Below are positions 1 through 22,099 of a stretch of DNA of 49,881 bases, piece after piece (the first letter of the stretch is position 1; every line of letters starts with the position of its first letter). A program made the translations under genes and the position numbers. The notes beneath the pieces were generated by a model. The model did no database searches, had not been told where the DNA came from, and saw only the letters and a list, made by a program, of their open reading frames with translations. The stretch is from Solirubrobacterales bacterium (lineage in GTDB: Bacteria > Actinomycetota > Thermoleophilia > Solirubrobacterales > 70-9), in the NCBI GenBank assembly GCA_021154855.1, contig JAJKHV010000173.1, positions 1 to 49,881 on the forward strand. The letters run 5' to 3'.

Positions 1-1939
1 ATCCCTTTGCCCCCTTCTTCTTCGTCTTGCGGTGACGGCGGGGCTTTTCGTGCGTCCCCTTCTTCAGGCAGATCCCCTTGTGCTTGTAGTAGCCCTTGCG
101 GCAGTACTTGCGGTAGGAGACGGGCGGGTTGCCCGCGCCTTTGGCCAGGGTGGCGAGCGATGGGTCGGGGGGAACCGCGGGCAGGACCTGGCAGGCATCG
201 CCTTCGCAGGGGATCTGCCGAGCGGGTTCTGGGAAGCCGCCCCCGACCTTTGCGTCATAGAGGTCCATCGAGCCGGGGTCGGTTCCCACCAGGCTCGCCT
301 CGGTGAGGAAGTAGGCATCGGTGCCGTCGGCCGATGCGGCGGCAAAGGAGGCGCCCTGGGGCAAAGCGCCGTTGGAGAGGATCGAGATGCAGCCGGCAGC
401 GGCTTTGCAGCTGCCTTCGCCCTGTGCCTCCCACTGATAGGCGTCGGGGACGCCTGTGCCGGTGGTCGGGTTTGAGTTTGAGTCGGCGGTGACCAGGGCG
501 TCTTGGCTTGTAAAGAAGACGCGCTTTGCGTTGGAGCTGAGCGCCCTTGGCTTGTAGGGGGCGTAGGAGATGCCGTTGGCGTAGGCGCCGGGGATGGTGG
601 AGGAGCCCTTGGGCTTCCTGGTCGCCACCGGGTTGCAGGAGGCGCAGCGAAGCGCGGGGGTGGCGGTCTCGTCGTACAGGAAGAGCTCTGTGTCGGGAAG
701 GCCTGTGACTTTGTCGGTGTTGTCGTAGCCGGTCAGTTTGGCTTTGGAGGTGAAGAGGAGTGCTTTGCCGTTGGAGGAAAGGCGCGAAACTCCTGTTGCC
801 GGTGGCCAGCTGGAGGGATCGGCAGCGGTTTCTCCCGCCGCGATCGTCGTCGTCGTTTCTTCTCGCCAGCGCTCGAGGCCGGCGGTGTCTTGGAAGTAGA
901 CGGTTGCGCCGTCTGGCGAGGCGGCCAAAATGCCTTTGACGCCGCTTGCGATCGCGCTTTGCGTTTCGCTGGCGGCACTGTAGCGGTGCAGGGCTCCGCC
1001 GACCGTGTAGTAGGCGTAGGCGCCATCGGTGGAGGCGGCCTCAAAGGAAGCTGCGCTGCCGGTGGTTTCTGGCAGGGCCTTTGGCGGCTGGCCCGGTTCG
1101 TAGAGGTAGAGCGGGCCGTCTTCCCGCTGGTAAGCGTAGATGCGGCTGGCGTCTTTGGAGATCACTCCGGGGCCTTGGGGGAGCTTTGAGCCGGGAGTGC
1201 CGATCAGGGTCAGGTTGCCGGTGGCCTTCTTCCAGAGGTAGAGGTTGGGCTCGGCGCCCCCGCAGCCGTCTGTCGCATCGTCTGTCAGCGCCGAGCAGCT
1301 GCCGAGCACGACCGCGCTTAGGTCAGGTGTTGCACCTTCGAGCCTTACTTCGAATGTCGCGGGATCGAGGCCCCGGCCGGCGATGTCGGCTTCGCCGATC
1401 AGCGCTTCGAAAGAGGCACCTTCGCGCAGGTAGTAGTCCTGGAAGCCGGCAGGGGCGTCGGTGCCTGGTAGCGGCGGGTTGGCCACCGGGCATTCCGTCG
1501 CTTCGCCGCGGCAGCGATCGCCGTTCAGCATCAGCGCCCTGGAGAGGTCTTGGGAGAAGATCCGGTAGGGCACCCCCTGGTCGGTGAAGTGAAAGGAGTC
1601 CGAGAAGACCGGGGTGGTGATGTTCTGGGCAAACCAGCCGCCGGGGGTGCGGGTGCCTATGTATTGGCTTGCGATCGGAGCTCCCGTGCCGCCAGCGAAG
1701 GAGGAGGCCGAGGAGTAGGTCACCGCTCCGCCTTGCGCCGCGGCCTGAAGCACGCCGCCTTTGGCGATCGTTTCCGGCGGGTCGACTCTGCCGCCGTTCT
1801 TCTCCACCGGCGAGACCATCTCCCAGCCCCTTGCGTCGGGCAGGGCGGCCTGGGCGGAGCTGGCCAAGGCCGCCGCCAAGAGCAGGGCGCAGGCGCCGCC
1901 GCCCATAAGGACGCGGCGGCGTCTATCGCGAATGCTCAT
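1..1939 (-). CDS. Secreted TolB/PD40-like beta-propeller repeat protein with Cys-containing polybasic C-terminal tail; 3' end runs off the window (about 646 codons visible)
   Basis: Absent from the ORF track because the frame stays open to the window edge, and no stop-bounded ORF is listed in this frame. Hand translation from ATG 1939 gives MSIRDRRRRVLMGGGACALLLAAALASSAQAALPDARGWEMVSPVE (signal peptide). Nt 2-330 give ...DLYDAKVGGGFPEPARQIPCEGDACQ...YRKYCRKGYYKHKGICLKKGTHEKPRRHRKTKKKGAKG. Both ends are collinear with the N- and C-termini of ORF 5455..9636. Confidence 0.7.
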   Translation of the reverse strand, partial: MSIRDRRRRVLMGGGACALLLAAALASSAQAALPDARGWEMVSPVEKNGGRVDPPETIAKGGVLQAAAQGGAVTYSSASSFAGGTGAPIASQYIGTRTPGGWFAQNITTPVFSDSFHFTDQGVPYRIFSQDLSRALMLNGDRCRGEATECPVANPPLPGTDAPAGFQDYYLREGASFEALIGEADIAGRGLDPATFEVRLEGATPDLSAVVLGSCSALTDDATDGCGGAEPNLYLWKKATGNLTLIGTPGSKLPQGPGVISKDASRIYAYQREDGPLYLYEPGQPPKALPETTGSAASFEAASTDGAYAYYTVGGALHRYSAASETQSAIASGVKGILAASPDGATVYFQDTAGLERWREETTTTIAAGETAADPSSWPPATGVSRLSSNGKALLFTSKAKLTGYDNTDKVTGLPDTELFLYDETATPALRCASCNPVATRKPKGSSTIPGAYANGISYAPYKPRALSSNAKRVFFTSQDALVTADSNSNPTTGTGVPDAYQWEAQGEGSCKAAAGCISILSNGALPQGASFAAASADGTDAYFLTEASLVGTDPGSMDLYDAKVGGGFPEPARQIPCEGDACQVLPAVPPDPSLATLAKGAGNPPVSYRKYCRKGYYKHKGICLKKGTHEKPRRHRKTKKKGAKG

Positions 1940-1963
1940 CCGGTCTTCTTGCCCTTGGGCTGT

Positions 1964-4900
1964 TTAGCCGTGGTGCCTCGCGTGGCCCTTGGCCTTGCGC
2001 GCGGAGCCCTTGCAGCGCGCCTGTAGGGGCGGGGTGGCTTCGAACGTGCGGCCGTTGTGGGCGGTGAGGGCGGCTGTGGCTTTGAAGGGCCGGGAGCAGA
2101 TGTCTCTGCTGTTTTGCAAGAGCCCCTTCTTGGCCCCCTTCATCTTCAGCACCACCCTGGTGATCGGGGCGTCGGGGACGAACTCGAATGTGGTGCGAAT
2201 GCCGCCTTTGACCGAGTCGACCCTTGCTGCTGCTTCGAGGTGGATCGGCAAGGAGGCCGGGCCCCTCAGGTCCATCACCAGGTCGGGCAGTTCGTGTTCG
2301 GAGGAGCGCAGGTAGACGTTGCCTGTAAGTGGGGAGTCAAGCAGCGGCGTTTGCGCTGTGACCTTGCCGTAGATCGATGCTTTCGGGCATTGGTCTGCGG
2401 CGAACTGGACCCTGGTGCAGACGGTGCCGATGTGGGACTGATCGAGGAACTCCGATTTGGGCAGGGCGACCTGCACGCTTTGGGTGTTGGCGTCGCCCGG
2501 GCGGGGGCGGAAGACCGCGGTCAGGGCCGGGTGATCGCCTCTTTGGGTTCCGCCTTTCAGCTTCAAGGCGAGCTTGGGTTTGTAGCCGAGCGCTGCGCAC
2601 TCGCCTACCTGGAAGCGATCGGAGACCGCAGCCGTTACGCCGCCGGTTCCTTCGATCAGGCCGTTTGCCGACTTCGGCTCACAGCTGGTCGGGTTGAGCG
2701 CAAAGCCCTGGCGGTCGAGGAGCACCCTGATGTCTCTGAGGTCCAAGGGGATGCCCGAGAGCGAGGTCGGGATCGGATCGGAGACCGCGTGGGCCCTTGC
2801 GGTGCGCTGATCCAAGCCCACCGGGACCCGGACCAAGACGTTGCCGAGGTCAAAGGGGCCGGCTACGGCGGGGGTCAGGACCGCGAGGCTGAGTGGGGCG
2901 CCTTTGTAGGGGCCTGCCAGGTAGGCCTTGCCTGTGCGCACGTAGAAGGGCGAGCCTGAGCCTGCTCCGGCTTGCACTGTGCCGATCTGGGAGTTGGCCG
3001 GACAGCTTGGGCTGGCGATCTGCGCCTGGCCGGTTCCCGGGCCGGTCGGCAGGGCGCCGAGGGCGGAGTCCGGGCAGGTGGCGACTCCCGCCAGCTGGGC
3101 GGAGAGGCCTTCGGGCAGGTCGACCGAGATCCGGGTCAGGTCCGGCGCCCCGGGGTCGTTGGTCACCTGCGTTGCGAAGGTGGCGAACGATCCCGCAAGC
3201 GCCGTCTCCGATCCGGCGTGGAAGCCCGGTGCGAAGGGCTTTTGGCCGCAGTTCTGATCGAGGGTGAATTCGCTGTGGCCCTTGACCGGTTCTGTGCCTG
3301 ACCAGGGGGTCAGTTCATAGCTGGTCGCGTAGGTGCCGCATTTGTCTGGGGTGGTGATCAGGCCCCTGTTGCCGCCCTTGAAGTGAAGTTCGAGGTCTTC
3401 GAAGGGCTGCTGGGGGTTGTCGTCGAAGGTGGCCGTGATCTGGCCGGTGTTGGGGTCGACGTCGATCTTCGCCGCGACCTTCAGTGTCACGCCCTGGCCG
3501 CTTGCGACCAGGTAGCCGGCGAACATCGAGTGAAACGGGTTGTCGTTTTGCTTGGCGAGGAAGACCCTGGCAGTCAGCGGGCCTTTCAGCACCGGGGTGT
3601 GGATTTCGCCGGTGGCGATCTTCGAGGAGTCCGGGCAGCGCGGTTCGGATTCGTCGAAGCGGATCGTGCCGCCCTCCTGCTCGGCCTGGGTGGCGACGCC
3701 TGAGCTCCCCTTCACCAGCTCTTCGATTTTGGCGTACGGTTTGTAGCCTTCGAGTTCCTGGCTGGTCGTGATCTCCGGCACGTCGTCTCCGGCGAACCCG
3801 CCTCCGAAGGCGATCCTGAAGACGGGCCGACCTTGGAAGTTGGCAAACCGCAACCCGCCGCTGACCTCGATATCGCCTGCGGCGATGCCCGGCAGGCTTT
3901 CCAGCGCCGCCTGGACTTCAGCAGCGTCTGCAGCAAGCGGAATCGGCGCGGTTTCTGAGCCTTCGAAGCCGAGCTTGTAGGTGCCGCCTTCCCCCAGAAC
4001 GGCGAGGCGCTGCAGCTCGCTCTGCGAGCCGCCGACCTGCGCAACGTCCGCTGCTCCGAGCGACCCGATGAACTGGACGTTCCAGGGCCCGCCCGCTCGC
4101 CCGCTCACGGAGACGTTGCCGACGCCGACGTTGGGCAGCCCTTCCAGTGCTACCTGCACTTCGGCAGCGCTTGCGTACTGGGGGAGCGGAGCGGTGCTCT
4201 TCCCTTCCAGGGAGAGCGCGACGGGCGCCCCGTGGCCGCCGATGTCGACCAGCTGCCGCTCGTTGCGGTGCAGCCCAATCTGTTCCTCGCTGCAGCTGCC
4301 GAGGCCGTCGGCCGAGGAGGCGTTCAGGGTGACACCCTGCGGCAGGGTAACAACCGCCTTCTTCAGGTCGGCGGTCGCTGCCCCTTCGGGGTCGCGGAGA
4401 CCATCCTGGGGAATCAACAGGTTGACGTCCAGGCCACTCGGGCTCGCGGGACTGCGAGTGGTGGGGTTCAGCGCCATCGTCGGTTCGAACGACACAGATT
4501 CGCAGTCGGTGATTTCGCCCATCGGGTCGATCGCGTAGTCGAAGGCGTTATAGCGCTGGTAGGTGTCCACCGCTTGCTCGAACTCAATCGGCCCGCAGCT
4601 GGTCGGGTTCGACATGAAGGCGGTCGGCGGCAGGCCGCTGGGGCGGGATATCGGTTCACAGTCCGGCAAATGCCCGCTGTGGCCGCACCGAATCAATTCG
4701 GTCCAGTCGTACCGTTCCAAATTGTGGCTGGGGTCGGTCGGCACGCCCCACAGTCGCGTAAAAGTTGCGGTCAACGGAATCAATGCAGGTGCGTTGACAA
4801 CCGTCGCGGTCAGGGCATTGTCGCGCATCGGGTCGACCTTGATGTCGATGAAGATCGGATAAAGGACCCCGACGAAGCCGAGGCGGGCAACGACGTGGCT

Positions 4901-5395
4901 GTCGCCTCCCGGCGCTTCGAGGTTGTAGACCGGCTCGTAGTATTCGCCCCCCGGGATTTCGAGGATCCCGGAGAGCCCCGGGCTCAGCAACCCGACCTGG
5001 GTATCGAGTTCGCAGGAGGGGGCGTTCGGATCCCCGAGCAGCCTGACTTGTTCGAGGAAGTCGGCTGTGCTGCAGGCGGGAAAGGCCGCGGGGTTGCCGA
5101 TCAACCCTGGTGGCAGCATCTGGCTGACGTCCCGCGCGCTCGCCCAAGGCTTGTTGCCACCGAAGCTTGGTTCGGTCGGGCTGCCTTCGAATGTGAACTT
5201 GGTTTCGAAATCGGCGTGCCGACCTGCCTGCAAGTTCACGAGCGACGCACTGGTTTCGAGGAAGCTGAAGTCCTCGGGGGCGGCCTGCACGGACACCGCC
5301 GCGGCGGCGGAGAGGGCGAGTATCGCCAGCGCCGCAACCGACGCGAGGAGGCCGCGACGGCGGCGCCTGCCCTGATTCTTGTTCCCCGACTGCAT
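1964..5395 (-). CDS. Very large secreted protein of unknown function (signal peptide, internal tandem repeats, basic C-terminal tail CKGSARKAKGHARHHG)
   Basis: The track ORF is 1964..5458. I prefer the internal ATG 5395 (MQSGNKNQGRRRRRGLLASVAALAILALSAAAAVSVQA) because AAGAGG lies 8 nt upstream in a lower-GC spacer. The alternative start 5458 would overlap the upstream stop as ATGA. I recognise no catalytic motif. Confidence 0.75.
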   Translation of the reverse strand: MQSGNKNQGRRRRRGLLASVAALAILALSAAAAVSVQAAPEDFSFLETSASLVNLQAGRHADFETKFTFEGSPTEPSFGGNKPWASARDVSQMLPPGLIGNPAAFPACSTADFLEQVRLLGDPNAPSCELDTQVGLLSPGLSGILEIPGGEYYEPVYNLEAPGGDSHVVARLGFVGVLYPIFIDIKVDPMRDNALTATVVNAPALIPLTATFTRLWGVPTDPSHNLERYDWTELIRCGHSGHLPDCEPISRPSGLPPTAFMSNPTSCGPIEFEQAVDTYQRYNAFDYAIDPMGEITDCESVSFEPTMALNPTTRSPASPSGLDVNLLIPQDGLRDPEGAATADLKKAVVTLPQGVTLNASSADGLGSCSEEQIGLHRNERQLVDIGGHGAPVALSLEGKSTAPLPQYASAAEVQVALEGLPNVGVGNVSVSGRAGGPWNVQFIGSLGAADVAQVGGSQSELQRLAVLGEGGTYKLGFEGSETAPIPLAADAAEVQAALESLPGIAAGDIEVSGGLRFANFQGRPVFRIAFGGGFAGDDVPEITTSQELEGYKPYAKIEELVKGSSGVATQAEQEGGTIRFDESEPRCPDSSKIATGEIHTPVLKGPLTARVFLAKQNDNPFHSMFAGYLVASGQGVTLKVAAKIDVDPNTGQITATFDDNPQQPFEDLELHFKGGNRGLITTPDKCGTYATSYELTPWSGTEPVKGHSEFTLDQNCGQKPFAPGFHAGSETALAGSFATFATQVTNDPGAPDLTRISVDLPEGLSAQLAGVATCPDSALGALPTGPGTGQAQIASPSCPANSQIGTVQAGAGSGSPFYVRTGKAYLAGPYKGAPLSLAVLTPAVAGPFDLGNVLVRVPVGLDQRTARAHAVSDPIPTSLSGIPLDLRDIRVLLDRQGFALNPTSCEPKSANGLIEGTGGVTAAVSDRFQVGECAALGYKPKLALKLKGGTQRGDHPALTAVFRPRPGDANTQSVQVALPKSEFLDQSHIGTVCTRVQFAADQCPKASIYGKVTAQTPLLDSPLTGNVYLRSSEHELPDLVMDLRGPASLPIHLEAAARVDSVKGGIRTTFEFVPDAPITRVVLKMKGAKKGLLQNSRDICSRPFKATAALTAHNGRTFEATPPLQARCKGSARKAKGHARHHG
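3764..4234 (-). repeat. Two tandem 70-75-aa coding repeats inside the 1964..5395 gene (motif TAP(L/I)P..A.AAEVQ.ALE.LP...G...VSG)
   Basis: Residues ~409-477 are HGAPVALSLEGKSTAPLPQYASAAEVQVALEGLPNVGVGNVSVSGRAGGPWNVQFIGSLGAADVAQVGG. Residues ~491-565 are GGTYKLGFEGSETAPIPLAADAAEVQAALESLPGIAAGDIEVSGG...FGGGFAGDDVPEITT (numbering from the 5458 start). Confidence 0.7.
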
Positions 5396-5454
5396 CTGAT
5401 TCGCCTCTTTTCTTCCGTTCTCGTCCCTCGAGGTTCGCTTGCCTGGCCGCCGCC

Positions 5455-8400
5455 TCATCGCGCCGCCCTCCGGTTGGCGCCGCCCCGCCGATGGTGGTGG
5501 CGCCGGCGCTTGACGCAGCGTTCCCTGCCGTGGCGCTCCTTGCCGTGGCGGACCACGCGGCGCCTGCCCTTGCCACAGTGGATCCGCGATTTGACGTTGC
5601 CGCCGCCGTTCAGCGAGGAGCTTGCGACCTGCGGTGGCGCCGGCGCTGCAGCCGGCGCCCCCTGGCAGACGTCGCCCGCGCAGGGCTCGGTGACCCTGCT
5701 CTCAGGCGGCGGGAAGCCGCCGTTCACGCGGGCGTCGTAGATGCGGATCGCGCTGCCGTTTTCGTCCTCCGGCAGCAGCTGCTCGCGGGTGGTGAAGAGG
5801 ACGTTGCTGCCGTCGCGCGAGGCGGCGAATAGCGAGCTTTCGGCACGGCCCTGGCCGGTCGAGATCAGGGCGACGCCTTTTCCGGCCTGCCACCTGTAGA
5901 CATCGCGCGCGTGGTTGACATCACGCGGGACCAGAGCTTCGGTCGACTCGAAGAAGACCGTGTTGCCGTCGTTGCTGAGGTTGTTAGGCGCAGTCCGGGT
6001 CATTGCTTCGTACCGCAGGAGCTGCGCTTCACCCGTTGCCGGGCCGCTGCCGGAGCCACAGGAGACGCACGTCAGCTGTTCGGTGTTGGCGTCGTAGCGG
6101 TAGGCCTCCTCGCAGAGTTCGAGTTCGCCGTCGTGCTCTTCGGTTTTCGTGCAGGTTTCCGGCGTCGCCTCGGTGTTGTCGAAGGAGCTGAGCTGCGTGG
6201 TCGCCTCGAACGTGAGGACGCTGCCGTCGGGGGTCGAGCGGGTGTGATTCATCCCGCGGCCATGACCGAGACCGAATTTGTATGGCCCGACCGCCCCCGT
6301 CCAGGTGATCAAGCCCGCTTCCCCGAGCCGGAAGCTCGTCGCGTCCTCGCCTGAGATTTCGGCGATCAGCGTGGTGCTGTCATCGGCGCGGTTCCAGACG
6401 TACAACTTTCCGCTCTTTTCACCCCCCGTTTCGAAGGTGCGGACGAAATAGACGTGGGAACCGTCCTGGGAGACGTTGACGAAGGCGGCGTCGCCCGTGT
6501 CCGTGATCGGTGTCGACTTACCGCTGTCTAGGTCGTAGGAGTAGAGGTCCGCTGGTAGTGCGTAGAACTGCTTAATGGGATCCGAGTACCTGTCCGCATA
6601 GAACAGGTGGCCGTTGTAGATGCCCGCATAGGTGAGGCTCTGCGCCGGCATCGAGGCCGAAGCCGAAGGCACGGCTCTGATGACGTAGTTCGCATGCGAG
6701 GATCCCCCGAGCGCCACCACCCCTCCGATAGCGTTCGTGGCGGTGAGGCGGCACTGCACCACCTTTGCGAGATCTTCTGTCGTGAGGGCGTAGCTGGAGT
6801 CGGTCGCGCCGGGGATTTCGGTCCCGTTTCGCAGCCACTGGTAGCTGAAGGTCGGGCGGCCGCTCCAGCTGCCTGCTTCACAGAAGAGGCTGCTGCCCAC
6901 CTGTGGGCTTCCCGAGACGCCTCCGCTGGAAAGCTGTTCGGGCGGTTCGGGTGCAAACGCAACAGCTGGGCCGTAGACCGAGACGTTGGCGCTGGCTTGT
7001 GCTGCGACGAAGACGTGCGTGTTGGAGCCCCTAATCGCGACGCCCCTGCCGTTCAGTTCGGTCGTCGAAACGCTACTCGCGCTTGCGGCGCCCGAGGCGT
7101 CAAACTCCGTGAGTTGGGATCCCGTGAGCGCGTAGACATGGCCGCTGGAGGGATCGACGGAGACGGTCCTGACCCCCGAGGAGATTGCGTATTTAATCGC
7201 GCCGGTTGAGCCGTCGAGCTTTGCGAGTTCGCCTTCTCCTCCACCGTAGGAGTCGACGAAGACGAAGCCGGCCGTAGGCCCTATGCCGGCGGCAAGAGTG
7301 CAGGCTTCGGGATAGCTGAAGTTGGCGCTGTTGTCTGCGGCGGTAGGCGGATTGGCGCTGGGCACGTACTTGTGCACGAAGCCGCCGCTGTCGCTGGCGT
7401 AGACGTCTCCGTTGGGGGCGACGGCGACGCCGCAGGCCCTTTCGGAGAAGTGAAGCAGCGATCCGTCGGCCCCAGCCCCTTCCTTGTATTCGTCGAGCTT
7501 GCCCAGGAAGGCGCCGCTGGAGGCGAAGATGTCGATGCGCGATTCTTCTTGGGTTCCCGTGGCTACGTAGATGTCCCCGTTGGTGGCCGTGCCCGAGTTG
7601 TCGACCGCAACCTGGACGGAGCTCCTGCGCCGTTCTTCCGCGCTCGGGAATCTGATCGCGCCTTCCGGCGTTTCGCTGATCACGTTCGTGCCAAGGGCCG
7701 AGAAGTTGTCTGGCGTGCCGTCGGGCTTAAAGCGGGAGATCGTGCCGGCTTCGGGGTCGACGACGAGCAGATCGCCGCTTGACTGGTCGACCGCAACGCT
7801 TGTCGCATAGGAGAAGCTCGGCTGTGCGGCGCTGCCGAAGGTTTCGAGGAAGGGGTGGGTTTGCGCCGTCAGTCCCGAGGAGAAGAACATGCGACTGGAG
7901 ATGGCTTGCGCGGCGCCGGCCGCGTTGGTGGCGTTGACGCGGCACTGCAGCGTCTTGCCTTCGTCTTCGGCGGCAACCGTGTATGTGTTCGCGGTTGCGC
8001 CAGCGATTTCCGCCCCGTCGCGCAGCCACTGGTAGACGAAGCTGGGGCTGCCACTCCAGGTGCCGCTGGAGCAGCTCAGTTCGTCCCCCGCTTCGAGTGC
8101 GTCGCCCGGATCGGTCGAGTTGGCGATCGCCGGACCGGAGGACGCCTGCGGGTATGGCAGCGTAATTGAAACGGAGTTGCTGTAGACGACGGCAGCCCCG
8201 TCGCCGTTGGAAACCGCTTTGCGGCATTGGAGCGAGTGGCCCACGTCGGCTTCGGGCGGGGTGTAGGTGTTGGCGCTCTGGCCGGCGATTTCGGTGCCAT
8301 CGCGGAACCATCGGAAGGCGTAGGTGGCGCCGGTGACGTGGAAGTCAGTGCCAATGCAGGTGAGTTGCGTACCCACCGCCGAGGCATTGCCCGACGGGCC

Positions 8401-9636
8401 TATAAGAGCTCCGTCGAGCTGACGGACTTCCGGCGTTTCGGTTTCCTGGTAGGGCTCGACCAAGCGAGTAATGCTTGTCTTGATGCTCTTGCCTTCGCCA
8501 TTGCTTGCGGTCACCTGGCACTGCACGACGGCTCCTGCGTCGCTCGCGGCCACCGTGTAGCCGGCGCTGGTCGCGCCGCCGATCGGCGAGCCGTCGCGCA
8601 GCCACTGGTACGAGATCGTCGCCGTCCCGGGTTCGCCTATGCAGGTCAGTTCTTTGCCGACGACGATGCCATCGATGCCATACGGCTGCACCGCTTCCTG
8701 AGTGTTTCCGTTGCGGCGGACGAAGATCGGGCTGCCGCCCCAGTCGGTCTGACCGGAGCCACCCAATTCAAACGCCACTTCGCTGCCGTCTTCGGTGGCG
8801 CCTAGCCAGCGCGCTTCTTCCGTCGACGGCTGGTTGCCGGGCAGGAGCGAGACGACCTTGGTGGGGCCGCCCGGGGTCCTGTCGTAGAGGGTGGCTCTAC
8901 CTTCTGGCGCTGCCAGCGGCTCGAGATGCTTCTTGGAGACGAAGAAAACGTGCGTAGCGTTTTCCGTGATCATCTTGCCGGCGTTGTATTCTTCAAGGCC
9001 GGGTTCGAAGCCTGGGTCGTCGCCAAGCGATCCTCGCGCCAGCGGTTCGAAGCCGCTTGGGGTGCGCAGCATCTCGACCTTGGATTGGCCGATCCAGGGC
9101 TGCCAGAGGCTCGGCGTAGGGCCTGCCGCCGCTGCAAAGAAGTAATCGTGGTCGGGCGAAGCCGCGCCGGGCCTGCTCACGTCGGCCACCTGATCGCCGC
9201 GCACCCCGACCAGCTCCGTTTCCCAGCCTTCAGCGGTCCGCTTGGCCCGATAACGGTCGATGTCCCCGGTCCCGGGGTAGCCGGTGAGCGAGCCGCTTTC
9301 AGTTTGGAACAGCACGTCAGCGTTGCTCGGGCTGATCAATTCGATGTCGCCCGGGCTCGGCATCTCGTTGATCGGCCCGTTGCTGAAGCCGATCGGAAGC
9401 CCCCCTGTGTAGCGGGGAGAGACGAGCTCGTAGGCACGGCAGTCCGGGAGTTTGGCCGAAGGCCCGGTACGGAAGACTTCGTTGGGGCAGGTGTCGACGG
9501 CGCTGGCGGGAGGCGCACCAATTCCCAGGAAAGCCACGAGCCCGAGCACGATGAGGCAAGCCAGGCCGAGGCGGGCCGGGCGACTATCGGCTGCCTGGAT
9601 CGGTGCCGCGGGTGATGCCTTCACGTGGCGTCTCAC
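5455..9636 (-). CDS. 1393-aa secreted multidomain protein: signal peptide, TolB/PD40-like regions, four Ig-like repeats, NHL-like six-blade region, CxGDxCQ and polybasic Cys tail
   Basis: GTG start at 9636 with AAGGAG 8 nt upstream. Signal peptide is LGLACLIVLGLVAFLGIGAPPASA. NHL-like blades include SGDLLVVD, NGDIYVA, NGDVYASD and SGHVYAL (aa ~600-890). The C-terminus is IYDARVNGGFPPPESRVTEPCAGDVCQG...CGKGRRRVVRHGKERHGRERCVKRRRHHHRRG. The stop overlaps the alternative ATG 5458 of the next ORF. Confidence 0.85.
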   Translation of the reverse strand: MRRHVKASPAAPIQAADSRPARLGLACLIVLGLVAFLGIGAPPASAVDTCPNEVFRTGPSAKLPDCRAYELVSPRYTGGLPIGFSNGPINEMPSPGDIELISPSNADVLFQTESGSLTGYPGTGDIDRYRAKRTAEGWETELVGVRGDQVADVSRPGAASPDHDYFFAAAAGPTPSLWQPWIGQSKVEMLRTPSGFEPLARGSLGDDPGFEPGLEEYNAGKMITENATHVFFVSKKHLEPLAAPEGRATLYDRTPGGPTKVVSLLPGNQPSTEEARWLGATEDGSEVAFELGGSGQTDWGGSPIFVRRNGNTQEAVQPYGIDGIVVGKELTCIGEPGTATISYQWLRDGSPIGGATSAGYTVAASDAGAVVQCQVTASNGEGKSIKTSITRLVEPYQETETPEVRQLDGALIGPSGNASAVGTQLTCIGTDFHVTGATYAFRWFRDGTEIAGQSANTYTPPEADVGHSLQCRKAVSNGDGAAVVYSNSVSITLPYPQASSGPAIANSTDPGDALEAGDELSCSSGTWSGSPSFVYQWLRDGAEIAGATANTYTVAAEDEGKTLQCRVNATNAAGAAQAISSRMFFSSGLTAQTHPFLETFGSAAQPSFSYATSVAVDQSSGDLLVVDPEAGTISRFKPDGTPDNFSALGTNVISETPEGAIRFPSAEERRRSSVQVAVDNSGTATNGDIYVATGTQEESRIDIFASSGAFLGKLDEYKEGAGADGSLLHFSERACGVAVAPNGDVYASDSGGFVHKYVPSANPPTAADNSANFSYPEACTLAAGIGPTAGFVFVDSYGGGEGELAKLDGSTGAIKYAISSGVRTVSVDPSSGHVYALTGSQLTEFDASGAASASSVSTTELNGRGVAIRGSNTHVFVAAQASANVSVYGPAVAFAPEPPEQLSSGGVSGSPQVGSSLFCEAGSWSGRPTFSYQWLRNGTEIPGATDSSYALTTEDLAKVVQCRLTATNAIGGVVALGGSSHANYVIRAVPSASASMPAQSLTYAGIYNGHLFYADRYSDPIKQFYALPADLYSYDLDSGKSTPITDTGDAAFVNVSQDGSHVYFVRTFETGGEKSGKLYVWNRADDSTTLIAEISGEDATSFRLGEAGLITWTGAVGPYKFGLGHGRGMNHTRSTPDGSVLTFEATTQLSSFDNTEATPETCTKTEEHDGELELCEEAYRYDANTEQLTCVSCGSGSGPATGEAQLLRYEAMTRTAPNNLSNDGNTVFFESTEALVPRDVNHARDVYRWQAGKGVALISTGQGRAESSLFAASRDGSNVLFTTREQLLPEDENGSAIRIYDARVNGGFPPPESRVTEPCAGDVCQGAPAAAPAPPQVASSSLNGGGNVKSRIHCGKGRRRVVRHGKERHGRERCVKRRRHHHRRGGANRRAAR
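6712..6915 (-). repeat. Fourth copy of the Ig-like repeat (SLFCEAGSWSGRPTFSYQWLRNGTEIPGATDSSYALTTEDLAKVVQCRLTATNAIG)
   Basis: It lies at aa ~908-975 of the 1393-aa protein. It shares the Cys/Trp/YQWLR.G/QC framework of the three upstream copies. Confidence 0.8.
7903..8661 (-). repeat. Three Ig-like coding repeats (C..G.W.G.P...YQWLRDG..I.GAT...Y.....D.G..LQC.V.A.N..G)
   Basis: The repeats lie at aa ~326-385, ~419-485 and ~512-578 of the 1393-aa protein. A 20-nt string ccgtcgcgcagccactggta is identical at 8591-8610 and 8015-8034 and encodes YQWLRDG. Confidence 0.8.
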
Positions 9637-9887
9637 GTAGGTCTCTCCTTGTCCCGTGAGCCCCTCTGCCCGCCGCTTCCCTTTGCGGCTTCCGCGAGGC
9701 TCGGTTATGTCCCTGTACTTGCCGTTCCCTGAATCGACTTGCGAGGTATGGCTAGTTCCGAGAAGTTGCTAGCTGTACCGGCAAGTTGCGCCAGTGAAGC
9801 ACCCCTCTGCAGGGTTGTCAAGGGAAGTTCCCAAAAGAAAATGGGCGTTCCCAGAGGCGTTCCCGAGAGGGATATGCGGGTACCGAA
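9637..9887. promoter_or_regulatory. Lower-GC leader/promoter region of the secreted-protein operon with direct GTTCC(C/G) repeats and GTACC motifs
   Basis: GTTCC(C/G) occurs at 9724, 9755, 9827, 9847 and 9859, all in the same orientation. The box GTTCCCAAAAGAAAATGGGC lies at 9827-9846. GTACC occurs at 9775 and GGTACC at 9879. An inverted repeat ACTTGCCG/CGGCAAGT flanks part of the region. Confidence 0.5.
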
Positions 9888-10547
9888 TTAGCCTGGCAGC
9901 GAACGGGCGAGGCGAGCCGCTTGCCCAGCCCCGAGGTAGGGCGCGAGGATGAACTCGGCGAAGTCGGGGAGGAGATCCTCGAGCTGCGCGGCTTCGCCGG
10001 CGGCGACCTTGCGCGAGGCGAGCATGACCAGGGCGCCGATTGTTGACTCCTCGGTGCTCGGCGGCAGCTCCCGGCCTCGCTCGCGCTCGCTTCGGCCCTG
10101 CTCTAGGAACGGGACTGCCTCGTGAACGGCCTCATGGAAGCGAGCGGCGACCGCGGGGCTGGCGCCCTGCGATTCGACCAGGCAGAGGCGGGCGAGCCCT
10201 GGCTCGGAGGCGAGGAACGCAAGCACCGCGCCGGAGGCGGCGATCGCCTGCCGCGGCCAATCGAAAACCGGCGCGATCGCCTCTGCCGCCAGCTCGCGGA
10301 TGTGACCGACGACGACCTCGAAGGCGGCCAGGAAGCACTCCTCCTTGCTCTCGAAATTCGCGTAGAAGACGCGGCGAGAGACCTTCGCCGCCTTGGTGAC
10401 GTGGGTGATCGTCACCGCCTGGTAGCCGTGCTCAGCGACCGCGGTGGCGAGGCCCGCGATCAAGCGCTCGCGCTGGTTGTGGGCGACCTGCTCGCGGCTG
10501 AAGCCGTGGCGGCCGGCGGGAAGGGGGCCGAGCTCTGCCTCTGCCAT
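9888..10547 (-). CDS. TetR/AcrR-family transcriptional regulator (array member 1)
   Basis: HTH region is ERLIAGLATAVAEHGYQAVTITHVTKAAKVSRRVFYANFESKEECFLAAF. Pre-HTH motif is PAGRHGFSRE. C-terminal motif is LLPDFAEFILAPYLG. Confidence 0.85.
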   Translation of the reverse strand: MAEAELGPLPAGRHGFSREQVAHNQRERLIAGLATAVAEHGYQAVTITHVTKAAKVSRRVFYANFESKEECFLAAFEVVVGHIRELAAEAIAPVFDWPRQAIAASGAVLAFLASEPGLARLCLVESQGASPAVAARFHEAVHEAVPFLEQGRSERERGRELPPSTEESTIGALVMLASRKVAAGEAAQLEDLLPDFAEFILAPYLGAGQAARLARSLPG

Positions 10548-10558
10548 GGGCTACCGGG

Positions 10559-11236
10559 TCAGGCCGACGCCGACTCGCGGCCGCCGGCCTCGCGCGCCGC
10601 CTCGTCCTCGCCGACGTAGGGACGCAGGAGGAACTCGAGGCTCTCCGGCAGCAAGGCCCGGAGCTTCGCCTCTTCCCCCGCGATCAGGCGCTGGTTGATC
10701 ACCCAGAGAACGCCGCCGGTCAGGGTGTCCTCGAGGCTGTCCGGCAGCTTGTCGCTGCGCGGGTTGAGCTCGCGGCCCGGACGCAGCAGCGGCGCAAAGC
10801 GCTTAAGCGCCGCCTCGTGACGCGCGGCCGCCTCCGGACCCGCGGTCGGCGCCTCGACCAGGCATGCCCTGGCAACGTCGGGGTGGGCGGCGACCTGTTC
10901 GAGCAGCGCCCCCAGGCCTGCCCCGACCTTGTCCGGCCAAGGCCCGTCTTCGCGGTCGTAGGCTTCCTCGACCACGTAGGCGGTGCGCTCGAGCGCCGCG
11001 TCGAGCAGGGCCAGGAAGGCCTCCTGCTTGTCGGCGTAGTGCTTGTAGAAGGTCGCGTAGCCAACTCGGGCACGGCGAATGATCTGCTCGATCGTCGTCT
11101 CGGCGAAGCCCTGCTCGGCGACCAAGCCCGCTGTTGCCTCGAGAATCCGGCGGCGCTGGTCGGCCGCCGACGCGGCGCGGCTGACCGGCTCGGGACCGGG
11201 CGGCTGCCGGGACGCCTTTCCAGGCAATGCGCGCAC
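10559..11236 (-). CDS. TetR/AcrR-family transcriptional regulator (array member 2)
   Basis: HTH region is QRRRILEATAGLVAEQGFAETTIEQIIRRARVGYATFYKHYADKQEAFLALL. C-terminal motif is LLPESLEFLLRPYVG. Confidence 0.85.
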   Translation of the reverse strand: MRALPGKASRQPPGPEPVSRAASAADQRRRILEATAGLVAEQGFAETTIEQIIRRARVGYATFYKHYADKQEAFLALLDAALERTAYVVEEAYDREDGPWPDKVGAGLGALLEQVAAHPDVARACLVEAPTAGPEAAARHEAALKRFAPLLRPGRELNPRSDKLPDSLEDTLTGGVLWVINQRLIAGEEAKLRALLPESLEFLLRPYVGEDEAAREAGGRESASA

Positions 11237-11322
11237 GGAGTTAGGATAGCGCGCGTTCCCATTGGTACGAAGGCAGTATATGAAGTGGTGCGAGTTCCCA
11301 AAAATGGGCTAAGGTACCCCGA
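11237..11322. promoter_or_regulatory. Divergent TetR promoter/operator region
   Basis: GTTCCCATTGGTAC lies at 11255-11268. GTTCCCAAAAATGGGC lies at 11294-11309. GGTACC lies at 11313-11318. The GTTCCCA-A-run-TGGGC box also occurs at 9827-9846. Confidence 0.5.
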
Positions 11323-12012
11323 GTGAAAGCGTCACCGACACTGCGAGCAGTGAGGTCATGGGATGAGGCCATCTCGCAGCGTGCGGCGGATGAGGGAGCG
11401 CTGGAAGCGATGCTGCTGAGCGTCGGCGCGAAGGGATACGACAAGGCGACGGTGCAGGAGGTGCTCGAGCGCAGCGGCATCTCCCGCGATCGCTTCCAGC
11501 GTGGCTTTGGCGGCAAGGAGGCCTGCTTCGCGCAGGCTTACGAGATGGCGGCAGATCGACTCTGCGCGGAAGTGCTCGAGGCGGGCCGCGAGGCCGAGAG
11601 CTGGCGGGCGGGCTTCCGCGCCGCCCTCGCCACGCTGCTGCGCACGGTCGCCGAGCAGCCGTTGCTGGCCAAGGCGCTGCTGATCGAGGTGCGCGCCGCC
11701 CGCGGGCAGGCCTGGGTCAAGCACCAGCAGCTGACCGAACGCTTCGCCCGCGCGGTCGACTCCGCTCGGCGCCAGCCAGGGGCGAGATTGACGACGACGA
11801 CGCTCACCGCCCAGTTCGTCGTCGGCGCGATCGAGGAATCGGTCGCAGCCGAGATCGGCGCCGGCCGTGCTGCAACGGTCGAGCGGCTGCTTCCGGACCT
11901 TGCCCACCTGGCCGCGCTCAACTACTTCGGCGAGGACGAGGCCTGGCTCGAGCTGCGCTCGCCGGACCTCGCCACGGCCGAGACCGTCGCGCCGGGCGAG
12001 CCGATCGAGTAA
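11323..12012 (+). CDS. TetR/AcrR-family transcriptional regulator (array member 3)
   Basis: GTG start. HTH region is LEAMLLSVGAKGYDKATVQEVLERSGISRDRFQRGFGGKEACFAQAY. C-terminal motif is LLPDLAHLAALNYFG. Confidence 0.8.
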   Translation: MKASPTLRAVRSWDEAISQRAADEGALEAMLLSVGAKGYDKATVQEVLERSGISRDRFQRGFGGKEACFAQAYEMAADRLCAEVLEAGREAESWRAGFRAALATLLRTVAEQPLLAKALLIEVRAARGQAWVKHQQLTERFARAVDSARRQPGARLTTTTLTAQFVVGAIEESVAAEIGAGRAATVERLLPDLAHLAALNYFGEDEAWLELRSPDLATAETVAPGEPIE

Positions 12013-12015
12013 GCG

Positions 12016-13380
12016 TCAGGCCGGCTCCTGGGCCAGCTTCGCCGCCTCGGCGCTGCCGACGTATGGAGTCAGCGTGAACTCGACCAGATCCGGCAGCAGC
12101 TCCTCGAGCTCTTCGGCTTTGCCGGCGATGATGCGGCGTGAGATCAGCGAGACCATGCCGCCGACGAGGGCCTCCTCGGTGGTCGGCGAAAGGCGGGCGA
12201 GAACCTCGGGTGGGCGACCCTCGCGGCCGCTCTGGAAGTAGGGGACGAAACTCTGGATCGCGGCGTCGTAGCGCTCGACCACAACCGGGCCGGCGACCAG
12301 CGCCTCGACCATGCAGAGGCGCGCGAGGTTCGGCTCGGCGGCGAGAAACTCGAGCATCGCGCCGATCCCGGCTTTGACCGCATGCGGCCAGTCCTCGGCG
12401 CCCTCGAAGGCGGCGGAGACGCGACCGCGCAGCTCCTCCATAACGGTGTCGTAGGCGGCGACGAAGCACTCGTCCTTGCTCGAGAAGTGCTCGTAGAAGG
12501 TGCGGCGCGAAACGGCCGCATGGCGGGTGATGTGGGCAATCGTCGTTCCCGAATAGCCGTTTTCGGCAATCGCCTCGGCGAGGCCGGCGATCAACCGCTC
12601 GCGCTGGTTGTGGACGACGAACTCGCGCGGCAGGCCGTGACGACCGGGCGGGAGGCGTGCCAGCTCGGGCGGGTAATCCTCGGCAGGGACGTTGGTCCCG
12701 CCGGATTTACCGGGGGAAGATTTTTTAGCCACATCCCGACGATATCGCGCTGGCGGGTCGAAGCCACGCGCCAGCTCGGCCAGTCCCGCCTCGATACCCA
12801 GGTAGGGCATCACCGCGGCCGATAGCAATTGGGGAACGAGGGCGGGCAGCTCGTCGGCCTCACCGCGTACCACCTTGGCGTAGACCTGGCCGTAGGCGGA
12901 GCCGGCCAGCGCCTCGGCGGTGGTGTGCGGAACCGACTCGGGGTCGTCCATCTCGTTGCGACCGGCATCGATCAGCGAGGCGATCACCCGCATCGTCATG
13001 TCGCGGCGGGCGCGGGCGGCGTCGCCGGCGGCCAGCACCTCGACCGCGAAGGAGGCCCGGCTGGGAGCGCTGCGCAAGTTCTCGACGATCTCGCAGGCGA
13101 CGGCACGCAGGCGGTCAGGCCATTCTTCCTGGCTGTTGAAGGCCTCGACCATCTCCCTCATGCAGCCCTCGTTGATCTCCTGCCAGGCGGTCAGGAAGCA
13201 GTCGTACTTGCTGCGGAAGTGACGATCGAAGGCGGGTCGGTCGAGGCCGGCCCGGTCCAGAATCAACTCGATCGTGGTCTCGGCATAGCCGCGCTCGGCC
13301 GCGATCTCGATCAGGGCCTCGACAATGCGCTCGCGCTCGGGACTGGCCGCGCGCTCGCGGGTCTCCAGGTCAAGGGGCAC
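12016..13380 (-). CDS. Tandem (double) TetR-family regulator: two complete TetR modules in one 454-aa chain (array members 4a and 4b)
   Basis: Module 1 (aa 1-~205) has ERIVEALIEIAAERGYAETTIELILDRAGLDRPAFDRHFRSKYDCFLTAW ... LVPQLLSAAVMPYLG. The linker is ~37 aa (FDPPARYRRDVAKKSSPGKSGGTNVPAEDYPPELA). Module 2 has LPPGRHGLPREFVVHNQRERLIAGLAEAIAENGYSGTTIAHITRHAAVSRRTFYEHFSSKDECFVAAY ... LLPDLVEFTLTPYVG. There is no stop between the modules. Confidence 0.8.
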   Translation of the reverse strand: MPLDLETRERAASPERERIVEALIEIAAERGYAETTIELILDRAGLDRPAFDRHFRSKYDCFLTAWQEINEGCMREMVEAFNSQEEWPDRLRAVACEIVENLRSAPSRASFAVEVLAAGDAARARRDMTMRVIASLIDAGRNEMDDPESVPHTTAEALAGSAYGQVYAKVVRGEADELPALVPQLLSAAVMPYLGIEAGLAELARGFDPPARYRRDVAKKSSPGKSGGTNVPAEDYPPELARLPPGRHGLPREFVVHNQRERLIAGLAEAIAENGYSGTTIAHITRHAAVSRRTFYEHFSSKDECFVAAYDTVMEELRGRVSAAFEGAEDWPHAVKAGIGAMLEFLAAEPNLARLCMVEALVAGPVVVERYDAAIQSFVPYFQSGREGRPPEVLARLSPTTEEALVGGMVSLISRRIIAGKAEELEELLPDLVEFTLTPYVGSAEAAKLAQEPA

Positions 13381-13413
13381 TAGGTCATGGGACCGCCGAT
13401 CCCTGCCCCTGGC

Positions 13414-14130
13414 TCAACCCGCAGTGGGTGTTGACGGTTGCTCGGCGGCGATCCGCTTGGCTGCCTCGGCGCCGAGGTAAGGAGTGAGGGAGAACTCGAC
13501 CAGCTCTGCCAGCAGGCTCTCGATCTGCTCCGCCTGTCCCATGATGATGCGCTGGTAAAGGATCCAGAAGATGCCGCCGACGATCGTCTCCTCGAGCGTC
13601 CCCGGCAGCTCCTCCCCCTTCGAAGAGACCTTGCGGCCCATGCGGAAGAGCGGCACGAAGGCCTGGATCGAGCGCTCGTAGCGGTCGACCGCGGCCGGAC
13701 CGGCCGAGAGCGCCTCGACGATGCAGGTACGGGCCAGCGCCGGCTCGGTGGCTACGTAGTGCAGGAAGGCCGCGAGGCCGGCGTTGACCCGGGCCGGCCA
13801 GGTATCGACCTTGCTGGCGGCGTCGACGACGCGGCGCAGCGCCTCCTTGACCGCGAACTCCGAGGCGGCGAGGAAGCAGTCCTCCTTGGAGGAGAAATTC
13901 TCGTAGAAGGTGTTGCGGGCGATGCCGGCGCGGCGGACGATGTCGGCAACCGTGACGGCCCGGTATCCCTTCTCGACCGTCTCCTCCGCAAGTGCCGCGA
14001 TGATGCGGGCTCGCTGGTGCTGAGCGATGAACTCGCGGGGCAGTGGATGGCGCCCCGGCGGCATTCTGGTCGCTTGGGGAGCACGGTCGGGCACGAACGC
14101 CAGAGTACCCCTATGGGTATCTGATTCCAA
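13414..14130 (-). CDS. TetR/AcrR-family transcriptional regulator (array member 5); start uncertain (TTG 14130 or ATG 14064)
   Basis: Sequence reads MPPGRHPLPREFIAQHQRARIIAALAEETVEKGYRAVTVADIVRRAGIARNTFYENFSSKEDCFLAAS ... LLAELVEFSLTPYLG. The sister genes start about 10-15 aa before the GRHG motif, which favours ATG 14064. Confidence 0.8.
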   Translation of the reverse strand: MESDTHRGTLAFVPDRAPQATRMPPGRHPLPREFIAQHQRARIIAALAEETVEKGYRAVTVADIVRRAGIARNTFYENFSSKEDCFLAASEFAVKEALRRVVDAASKVDTWPARVNAGLAAFLHYVATEPALARTCIVEALSAGPAAVDRYERSIQAFVPLFRMGRKVSSKGEELPGTLEETIVGGIFWILYQRIIMGQAEQIESLLAELVEFSLTPYLGAEAAKRIAAEQPSTPTAG

Positions 14131-14186
14131 GCTGGACGTATTGACCAGATACCGCTACAGTACCGGACTCCAGACAACCCGTTCCC
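14106..14186. promoter_or_regulatory. Operator-like palindromes in the divergent TetR5/TetR6 control region
   Basis: TACCC-CTAT-GGGTA lies at 14106-14119. The 8-bp inverted repeat GGTATCTG (14116-14123) / CAGATACC (14146-14153) follows. GTACC lies at 14160 and GTTCCC at 14181. GAGGAAAGG precedes ATG 14211. Confidence 0.45.
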
Positions 14187-19567: not shown

Positions 19568-20175
19568 GAGAGGAGGTCGGCGGCGGCGACGCGGAACTCC
19601 TCGGGAAGAACGCCCCAGACCTCGCAGTCGTCGGCCGGCGCGCCATCGCGACGCAGGTGAGCACGCATCGTCCCCTCGTGCTTCCAGCCGAGGCTGGTCA
19701 CGGTCTTCTTGGCTATCTCGTTGCGAGCGGGGATCCGCCCGTAGACCCGGTGGGCGCCGAACTCGTCGAAGGCCTTGGCGATCGTCAGCGCCTCAGCGCG
19801 GCGGCCGACGCCCTTGCCCCGCACGTCGTCGCCGATCAACGCTCCAAGCTCGGGCGCAGTCTGGCGAAAGAGCCCGTAGAGGGCGGTGAAGCCGACCGGC
19901 TCCGCATAGTCCTCGACCACGATCGCGTACTTACGGTCCTCGCCCGAATCGTCCATCGCCCGCCCGACCCAGGCCTCCGCTTCAGCAAGCGAGAACCCAT
20001 CCCGCTGCTCCATCAGCGAAGCGGTCGCGGCCGGGTTGTTGAACCAGCGGTGCACCGCGGCGGCATCGCCCGGCTCGAAGCTGCGCAGGCTTACGTGGGG
20101 AGGCCGATCGTTCACGGCGAAAACCCTACGGCCTCCGCTCTCCCCTTGGGCGTAACGCTTATCCGTGAATCCCAT
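19564..20175 (-). CDS. GNAT-family N-acetyltransferase (RimJ/RimL-like)
   Basis: Sequence reads FEPGDAAAVHRWFNNP...YAIVVEDYAEPVGFTALYGL...GALIGDDVRGKGVGRRAEALTIAKAFDEFGAHRVYGRIPARNEIAKKTVTSLGWKHEG. It overlaps the next gene by 4 bp. Confidence 0.8.
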   Translation of the reverse strand: MGFTDKRYAQGESGGRRVFAVNDRPPHVSLRSFEPGDAAAVHRWFNNPAATASLMEQRDGFSLAEAEAWVGRAMDDSGEDRKYAIVVEDYAEPVGFTALYGLFRQTAPELGALIGDDVRGKGVGRRAEALTIAKAFDEFGAHRVYGRIPARNEIAKKTVTSLGWKHEGTMRAHLRRDGAPADDCEVWGVLPEEFRVAAADLLS

Positions 20176-22049: not shown

Positions 22050-22099
22050 CGGGCGATTATCGGCTTCCGTTGCGCTTTATGCCCGCATGGGGTCGCTGA

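Follow-up and report, generated by a model that had tools for sequence, protein, structure and literature searches.

The left end of contig JAJKHV010000173.1 from a Solirubrobacterales bacterium (a stretch of 49,881 nucleotides (nt), referred to as a whole as the window) carries, at positions 1-9636, three genes for very large, predicted secreted proteins, which we call g3, g2 and g1 from right to left along the minus strand. We find that g3 and g1 end in a conserved, lineage-specific and undescribed sequence module ("tail A") that is followed by a run of basic residues, and that genes encoding tail A are nearly always followed by a gene of the g2 family, whose products end in a different Cys-containing element ("tail B") and a basic run of their own. 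The cassette made up of these genes encodes a Thermoleophilia-specific (mainly Solirubrobacterales) set of predicted surface proteins without a recognisable catalytic domain. Our preferred reading, held at a little under even confidence, is that the tails hold the proteins by charge, without a covalent bond, on anionic material of the envelope and display a stoichiometric two-protein complex at the cell surface.

An initial annotation, made from the letters of the window alone, had drawn attention to Cys-containing polybasic C-termini on all three proteins, and the translations read as it quoted them. It also placed a CxGDxCQ motif in all three. The motif is present in g1 and g3; g2, which belongs to another family and has another disulfide-closed end, lacks CxG(D/E)xC altogether. 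The profile that describes tail A (profile A1) has 70 positions and runs through YDARVGGGFP, CxGDxCQ, a linker of the form LP..P.DPTL.TLL.G.GNP.V.Y and CxKGxVKRKGxCVKK. The initial annotation had proposed a search with a hidden Markov model (HMM) of the tail, and this search shows that orthologues and paralogues keep the tail: among 1.84 billion representative proteins, profile A1 returned 5080 hits at E ≤ 1e-3, which is the size of the family in clusters at 50% identity, and 482 at E ≤ 1e-10. Nearly all of the 150 best hits match up to a point 15-30 residues short of the C-terminus of a protein of 600-1800 amino acids (aa), and the same 150 hits give the general form of the tail as CxG(D/E)xCQ ... 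P.DPTP.S..F.G.GN ... CxKGKVRRKGRCVKK, then the polybasic run.

A scan of one genome per GTDB species confirmed at least 432 genomic loci with tail A, and nearly all of their hosts are Solirubrobacterales, Conexibacteraceae or Thermoleophilia metagenome-assembled genomes (MAGs). Family members come largely from soil metagenomes and MAGs. One locus (L051, DATCPU010000283.1) lies in a bin labelled Candidatus Dormiibacterota and another (L067, JBASRJ010000378.1) in a Gaiellaceae bin. Two 50-aa NCBI entries attributed to Peribacillus (P0391 and P0392, one of them UNVERIFIED_ORG) cluster with the 1774-aa tail-A protein P0269 and are probably assembly contamination.

That the module is undescribed, as the initial annotation had supposed, is borne out by every library searched. 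The isolated tails matched nothing in Pfam-A or NCBIfam at E ≤ 10, and a profile search with tail A found no match among PDB sequences. With the full proteins, NCBIfam gave no match at E ≤ 0.1 and Pfam gave only Ig_2 and NHL, both in g3. Cluster look-ups returned the name "hypothetical protein" only, and a search of the full-text literature found no description of the family or of the tail. The propeller body described by a g1 profile co-occurs with the tail in 95 of 107 tail-A proteins. We therefore rejected the idea that tail A is a portable module carried by unrelated proteins, and the analogy with general sorting signals is weaker for it.

The anatomy of the tails was scored on our own gene calls at 81 loci (L001-L080 and the window), made with a crude caller based on GC content at third codon positions (GC3), which tends to place starts too far upstream. 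Behind the tail-A module stands a run of 18 aa at the median (range 7-56), which consists of 23% R, 21% K, 14% G and 12.5% H. Lysine makes up 1.9% of the bodies versus 23% of the last 40 residues, a 12-fold difference, and because the genome has a GC content of ~67% and Lys codons are AT-rich, such an enrichment needs selection. The bodies are acidic, with a median net charge of -35 and an isoelectric point (pI) of 4.56, and the tails carry about +16. Of 143 representatives, 128 end in K or R, where 45% would be expected (p = 8e-29). R/G occupies position -4 and A/G position -3, and the endings seen most often are NRRAAR, which g3 has, and NRRAGR.

Cysteines in the last 110 residues number either 2 (40 proteins) or 4 (51 proteins) and are never odd. 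The second pair is mostly spaced C-x10-C, less often x14 or x19 (x19 in g3), and is gained or lost as a unit. The even counts and the gain or loss of whole pairs support two local disulfides, one closing a CxGDxC loop and the other stapling a hairpin. The cationic hairpin (C.KG.VKRKG.CVKK) stands in two or three tandem copies in P0043, P0047, P0048, P0052, P0055-P0057, P0334 and P0372. Neither a hydrophobic run of at least 12 residues nor an LPxT[GAS] sequence occurs within the last 70 aa of any of 104 tail-A and 114 tail-B proteins, and LPXTG is likewise absent from the tails of g1, g2 and g3; the initial annotation had seen neither an LPXTG motif nor a hydrophobic C-terminal helix in the three proteins.

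Polybasic ends occur in three unrelated cassette families: the tail-A propellers, the g2 family and a group of NHL proteins. What the g2 and NHL tails share with tail A is charge only, not motif. Past the last Cys, proteins of the g2 family carry a run of 15.5 aa with a net charge of +7 (medians). Of ~103 further signal-peptide-like proteins encoded at these loci, just 13 end in a polybasic run, and most of these 13 lie inside cassettes and resemble the NHL-type protein found after a g2-type gene. A general trait of the secretome was rejected as the source of the tails, since ~90 other signal-peptide proteins in the same loci do without them.

The pairing of the two gene families is nearly strict. 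A g2-family gene directly follows the tail-A gene on the same strand in 94 of 100 scorable cases; the gap has a median of -4 nt, an ATGA overlap. All 115 tail-B proteins scored match the g2 body. The pair is often tandemly duplicated (81 loci). A typical cassette reads tail A, tail B, tail A, tail B, an NHL propeller with a polybasic tail, G6 and a lipoprotein. G6 is a family of secreted 260-aa proteins with a pI of ~10, all "hypothetical" and without a Pfam match, that stands at the end of many cassettes. It seems better conserved than the large proteins (~65% identity, versus ~52% for g1 homologues and ~45% for g2 homologues at similar rank), and its profile similarity to the repeat units of g2 is weak (hhalign E = 0.008, probability 5%). 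The C-terminal form of G6 (L001:16496-17278, homologues P0394-P0513) is ...SAGCP.PKG...(~35 aa)...C.AR(H/G). The flanks of the cassettes vary and hold housekeeping genes (fpg, nadA, transketolase, ftsEX). The neighbourhoods examined share no conserved sortase, peptidase or other candidate for a processing enzyme, and among the neighbours in L001 and L002 there is no sortase Pfam family.

The proteins g1 and g3 are homologous across their last ~340 aa, tail included (BLASTP 1e-20), and their N-terminal motifs RGWEMVSP (g1) and RAYELVSP (g3), which follow the signal peptides, correspond as the initial annotation had noticed. The scored candidates include 725 homologues of g1, all "hypothetical", whose tails align residue by residue; where an organism is named, as it is for a few, it is a Solirubrobacterales MAG. 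An AlphaFold2 model of g1 built with 60 homologues has a mean predicted local distance difference test score (pLDDT) of 80.6 and shows an all-beta propeller of repeated 4-strand blades. The initial annotation had asked for a model of the tail, and in this one the linker (residues 575-609) is of low confidence or disordered and is followed by a short beta-hairpin (617-626) closed by the Cys pair C613/C624 (pLDDT ~71). Foldseek related the model to tricorn, TolB and S9-peptidase propellers at E values of 5e-10 or weaker, and the low template-modelling (TM) scores of these matches are explained by the generic nature of the similarity. Pfam-A holds no family for g1 above threshold; PF07676 (PD40) is recorded on the homologues P0060, P0064 and P0075 and is found below threshold (17-25 bits) in P0263, P0267 and P0279. 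The body of g1 and the C-terminal region of g3 are thus predicted to be PD40/TolB-like beta-propellers.

The longer protein g3 opens with the RAYELVSP beginning of a propeller, continues with three to four Ig-like repeats and an NHL-like region, and closes with the C-terminal PD40-like propeller and tail A. Its Pfam matches are Ig_2 at 7e-16 and a weak NHL, and a sub-threshold NCBIfam match to ZirU arises from the Ig-like repeats. Three of these repeats are near-identical (residues ~320-390, ~510-580 and ~905-970), each with a Cys pair and the core (S/V)YQWLR(D/N)G..I.GAT...Y......(D/L).(G/A)K..QC.(V/L).A(S/T)N; a fourth (FRWFRDGTEIAG), near residue 440, has diverged further.

The g2 family (701 homologues) is unrelated to g1 and g3. 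Pfam-A gave no family for g2, and a PDB sequence profile search with g2 found no match. The AlphaFold2 model of g2 (pLDDT 90.6) is all beta, a chain of beta-sandwich domains, and Foldseek against PDB and BFVD returned generic Ig-like arrays only, with no specific functional analogue: the best fold matches, at TM ~0.1, were macroglobulin (MG) domains of complement and alpha-2-macroglobulin, integrin legs, a mastigoneme, DUF11 and mycobacteriophage minor tail proteins. As modelled, g2 amounts to a generic rod of Ig-like domains. The local similarity to the mycobacteriophage minor tail proteins (TM ~0.1-0.3) raised the idea of a phage origin, which was rejected: 2.9 million IMG/VR contigs hold no relatives of g2 or tail A, and the proteins have signal peptides. 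Across the cassettes, the bodies are composed only of propeller, Ig, fn3, NHL and beta-sandwich modules, which are typical of surface proteins. The additional modules found at N-termini are fn3, Ig, PKD and NHL; none of the domains seen is catalytic.

By inspection, the N-termini of all three proteins look Sec-type: the n-region is rich in Arg, a hydrophobic core comes next, and an AxA site closes the signal peptide, so the Arg-preceded signal peptides of the initial annotation stand. The predicted cleavage sites are AQA↓A in g1, VQA↓A in g2 and ASA↓V in g3. Tat export, which would call for a conserved S/T-R-R-x-F-L-K motif ahead of a weakly hydrophobic core, was also considered: Arg pairs precede the hydrophobic region in g1 (RRRRVLM) and g2 (RRRRRGLL), and many orthologues lack them (for example, MHFRIALALAV); the RRH(V/K)..AS N-terminus of g3 is kept in the L001 and L002 orthologues. 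No NCBIfam signal model matched g1, g2 or g3. None of their signal peptides ends in a lipobox (L-x-x-C), again as initially annotated, in contrast to a 245-aa protein further down the operon in L001 and L002 (LAGCGGG). The mature proteins have even numbers of Cys (12 in g1, 18 in g2, 20 in g3). On these features, we expect g1, g2 and g3 to be Sec-exported and disulfide-bonded.

From the genes, the family, the pairing, the anatomy of the tails and the folds, we infer surface retention by charge and the formation of a complex. The core unit is a translationally coupled pair of genes, one for a propeller with tail A (g3 or g1) and one for a beta-sandwich rod (g2). The elements of tail A stand in the order YDARVGGGFP, CxG(D/E)xCQ, a Pro-rich DPT...GxGN linker of ~30 residues, usually a cationic Cys-x10-19-Cys beta-hairpin, and a K/R/H/G run of ~18 residues ending in R-(R/G)-(A/G)-x-(R/K)-COOH; g2 contributes its distinct disulfide-closed domain and a polybasic run of ~15 residues. 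After export and disulfide formation, the cationic tails may bind anionic components of the envelope without the help of an enzyme, and candidate partners are wall-linked acidic polymers, lipoglycans and the outer leaflet of the membrane. The flexible linker would let the acidic ectodomains (pI ~4.6) project from the surface, where the paired proteins may be displayed jointly as an adhesin-like or fibre-like complex. We favour an electrostatic anchor because the layout of a basic end recurs on three unrelated cassette families without a membrane-spanning element or an associated enzyme. The initial annotation had suggested an anchor to anionic wall polymers, a recognition tag for a processing system, or a metal- or nucleic-acid-binding tail, and of these three the charge anchor is the more economical. 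Its broader label of an anchoring or sorting module holds in part: the module is conserved, lineage-specific and absent from libraries, and it is also bound to one family with no machinery evident.

Several observations weigh against an anchor that works by charge. The second Cys pair is missing in ~44% of tail-A proteins, in which the polybasic run directly follows the linker; the hairpin is thus not essential. The DPT...GxGN linker and the terminal R-(R/G)-(A/G)-x-(R/K) are conserved position by position beyond what composition explains, which a pure charge anchor does not need, and these motifs could mark recognition by a partner or an enzyme. Tail A is bound to one propeller family and could equally serve a role within the complex. 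Finally, almost all tail-A members come from uncultured MAGs.

The same position-specific conservation is what makes a true sorting or processing signal worth weighing. Here, a dedicated Thermoleophilia enzyme or export-assembly machine would read the linker motif, the C-terminus or both, and cleave the protein or attach it covalently, much as sortase, exosortase or MYXO-CTERM systems do. Three linker positions (G43, G45 and N46 in profile A1) are invariant in what is otherwise a "disordered" segment, the extreme C-terminus is conserved as well, the tail recurs on numerous paralogues within a genome, as is typical of sorting signals, and the taxonomic range is restricted. However, there is no transmembrane segment to keep a substrate at the membrane, no candidate enzyme is conserved in or beside the cassettes, no unrelated cargo carries tail A, and the g2 and NHL tails share its charge but not its motif. 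We consider a sorting signal unlikely. The conserved linker and terminal motifs also leave room for a role of the tails in assembly, in which each cationic tail would bind the acidic body of a partner or neighbour in a lattice, fibre or S-layer-like array and not the envelope. The pairing of strongly acidic bodies with strongly basic tails, the obligate gene pairs in tandemly duplicated cassettes and the well-conserved small partner G6 that closes many cassettes would all suit an array; G6 itself, though, is basic, and the polybasic runs vary so widely in length and sequence that non-specific charge binding fits them better than a defined protein interface does. We regard assembly as rather unlikely.

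Binding partners might also lie outside the cell. If the tails bound polyanions of soil or biofilm (clay, humics, extracellular DNA, acidic exopolysaccharide or polyphosphate), the proteins would be released adhesins or organisers of a matrix. The soil origin of the members and their non-catalytic, adhesin-like architecture are consistent with this, and the His-rich K/R runs (12% His) could give pH-dependent binding. Attachment by the C-terminus would, however, leave the large ectodomains without an evident role, and wall-proximal anchors are commonly laid out in this way, with a basic segment at the very end behind a linker; we hold this alternative to be quite improbable. At the far end of the scale, the polybasic run could be neutral low-complexity drift in a GC-rich genome, with the Cys motifs alone mattering, for the folding of the last domain. 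The poor conservation of the length and sequence of the run is what drift would leave, yet the Lys enrichment runs against the base composition of the genome, hardly any member of the three families is without the run, and its terminal residue is conserved; we think drift very improbable.

Few soil Actinomycetota are as common as the Solirubrobacterales, yet hardly any have been cultured, and next to nothing is known of their cell surface. The cassette family is large, multi-copy and fast-diversifying, with >5000 clusters at 50% identity for one tail type, and goes unannotated in the libraries searched. If the electrostatic anchor proposed above is correct, it would be a simple, enzyme-free principle of display for a whole class, and the tails could serve as a surface-display tag and help to pick out the surface proteome of MAGs. 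A bolder proposal, and one we put forward as unlikely although worth stating, is that tail A and the polybasic ends of its partners constitute a new class of Thermoleophilia surface-attachment signal that has no transmembrane segment and is read by a machine or an envelope receptor, for which the 260-aa G6 is a candidate. Soil Actinomycetota would then widely carry a surface structure of two components that has so far gone unrecognised, and reading by dedicated machinery would mean a new protein-sorting pathway in Gram-positive bacteria. The HMMs from this analysis make either reading testable.

In the window, the three co-directional genes have a GC3 of ~0.80, as in real genes, and their coordinates are given in Table 1. 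The open reading frame (ORF) calls agree with the consecutive minus-strand genes of 646+, 1164/1143 and 1393 aa that were initially annotated, and so does their close spacing, said to be 24-60 nt or an overlap: 24 nt separate g2 and g1, and g3 and g2 overlap by 4 nt or, with an alternative start of g2 (the ATG at 5395, giving 1143 aa), are 59 nt apart. A purine-rich stretch precedes the ATG at 5395. In many g2 orthologues (P0121-P0160), the N-terminal extension ends in ...SKE(N/R)A(E/Q)M just before the signal peptide, which we suspect to be a translated ribosome-binding site; the true start of g2 would therefore be the internal Met (M22). Orthologues of g1 are 638-650 aa long, so g1 lacks at most a few residues at the window edge; they end 0-3 residues further on (for example, ...KKKGAKK and ...KKGGKR).

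Table 1. Positions of the three genes and their sequence elements in the window
Feature	Position	Strand	Description
g3	5455..9636	-	ORF, 1393 aa, GTG start
g3 signal peptide	9499..9636	-	Predicted; aa 1-46, cut after ASA; read from translation
g3 tail A module	5515..5745	-	RIYDARVNGGFPPP, CAGDVCQ, Pro/Ala linker ending GGGN, Cys-x19-Cys loop; aligns with profile A1
CAGDVCQ of g3	5662-5682	-	
Cys-x19-Cys loop of g3	5515-5577	-	
g3 polybasic run	5458..5514	-	VKRRRHHHRRGGANRRAAR, terminates in NRRAAR
g2	1964..5458	-	ORF, 1164 aa; ATG overlaps g3 stop as ATGA
g2 signal peptide	5282..5395	-	Predicted; from internal ATG (MQSGNKNQGRRRRRGLLASV...VQA↓A); arrangement same in orthologues
g2 terminal element (tail B)	2012..2176	-	PDAPITRVVLKMKGAKKGLLQNSRDIC...(27 aa)...C; invariant Cys C1121 and C1149; conserved across homologues; modelled as last beta-sandwich
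g2 short polybasic run	1967..2011	-	KGSARKAKGHARHHG, begins right after last Cys
g1	2..1939	-	ORF, 646+ aa; stop codon and last few residues beyond left window edge
g1 signal peptide	1847..1939	-	Predicted; aa 1-31, AQA↓A
g1 RGWEMVSP motif	1808-1831	-	Follows signal peptide
g1 tail A module	68..265	-	DLYDAKVGGGFPEP, CEGDACQ, linker, Cys hairpin
CEGDACQ of g1	188-208	-	
g1 conserved linker	104-187	-	LPAVPPDPSLATLAKGAGNPPVSYRKY
g1 Cys-x10-Cys hairpin	68-103	-	CRKGYYKHKGIC
g1 polybasic run	2..67	-	LKKGTHEKPRRHRKTKKKGAKG; cut by window edge

The g3-g2-g1 genes of the window are the promoter-proximal part of a longer operon, and the "operon of three" of the initial annotation is too narrow, as related contigs have at least four further genes past g1. 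Orthologues of g3 hold the equal operon position in L001 and L002, and no terminator-like site was found on the minus strand of positions 1-10600, which counts as weak evidence. In the syntenic contigs, L001:11950-18767 and L002:11854-17958 correspond to the DNA just left of window position 1. There, g1 is followed by (i) a g2-like protein of ~1070 aa that begins fn3-like and closes with a g2-type end and its polybasic run, (ii) a 440-480-aa NHL propeller with a polybasic tail without Cys, (iii) one or two of the basic secreted G6 proteins and (iv) the 235-245-aa lipoprotein.

Directly upstream of g3, on both strands of positions 9888-14154, lie five TetR-like genes, including one for a 454-aa protein with two TetR_N domains (12016-13380). 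These genes are conserved in L001, where several precede the cassette. Further along the window (18584-27338) is a surface polysaccharide cluster of the Wzx/Wzy type that encodes two GNAT acetyltransferases, a Bac_transf initiating sugar transferase, GT2, GT4 and GT2 proteins, a Polysacc_synt flippase and a Wzy_C/O-antigen-ligase-like protein. This cluster could supply an envelope polymer; it does not adjoin the cassette in L001 or L002.

Known surface and sorting systems offer partial parallels. PD40/TolB-like propeller proteins share the predicted fold of g1 and g3, but here the TolB N-terminal domain, a peptidase domain and a Tol-Pal context are all missing. The Pfam models for LysM, SLH, CWB1/2, GW/SH3b, WxL and PG_binding matched neither g1, g2 and g3 nor the tails alone. 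The Por_Secre_tail and type IX secretion system (T9SS) C-terminal domain (CTD) models did not match either, and the hosts are Thermoleophilia, not Bacteroidota. The CTERM signals of the MYXO-CTERM/GC_trans_RRR, exosortase, archaeosortase and rhombosortase systems place a transmembrane helix between motif and basic cluster. The tails resemble them as a lineage-restricted C-terminal tag on many paralogues, with a conserved Cys and/or Gly motif and an Arg-cluster end, but they lack the helix, and no NCBIfam CTERM model matched. The GW modules of Listeria InlB bind lipoteichoic acid, and S-layer proteins of Lactobacillus have basic anchoring regions. The principle that we propose the tails share with these anchors is electrostatic, enzyme-independent retention via a C-terminal region on anionic wall polymers; the known anchors are folded repeats of at least 80 residues with Pfam families, whereas the tail is a ~12-residue disulfide hairpin and an unstructured run. 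Thanatin, arenicin and tachyplesin are disulfide-stapled cationic beta-hairpin peptides of a fold class that binds anionic lipids and glycolipids. The CxKGxVKRKGxC element is likewise predicted to be a short cationic, partly amphipathic beta-hairpin with one disulfide, but it is appended to a 600-1800-aa protein, can be repeated or absent, and has no sequence homology to the peptides.

LPXTG sorting signals are the C-terminal element of Gram-positive surface proteins (PMC5817068). Like them, tail A is C-terminal on proteins predicted to be Sec-exported, comes after a Pro-rich linker of the wall-spanning type and has a positively charged end. Unlike them, it has neither the pentapeptide nor a hydrophobic segment, contains Cys pairs, carries a basic run of 15-25 residues versus ~5, and has no sortase in the two neighbourhoods examined (L001 and L002). 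A further parallel comes from two Actinomycetota surface proteins. The Lys-rich repeats of mycobacterial HBHA form a polybasic C-terminal domain that binds polyanions or anionic lipids (PMC3293801), and the Arg-rich C-terminal domain of PE_PGRS3 acts by charge on such ligands (PMC8007152). These segments and the tails are alike as K/R-rich, low-complexity C-terminal ends of Actinomycetota surface proteins. They differ in that HBHA and PE_PGRS3 have no sequence relationship to the tails, bind host ligands and are not known to have a CxG(D/E)xCQ element, a Cys hairpin or a classical signal peptide; the tail-A family is also far larger, paired and found in soil organisms. The principle of a cationic, non-covalent C-terminal anchor is thus already known, and what is new here is the sequence module of the tail and the paired system that carries it.

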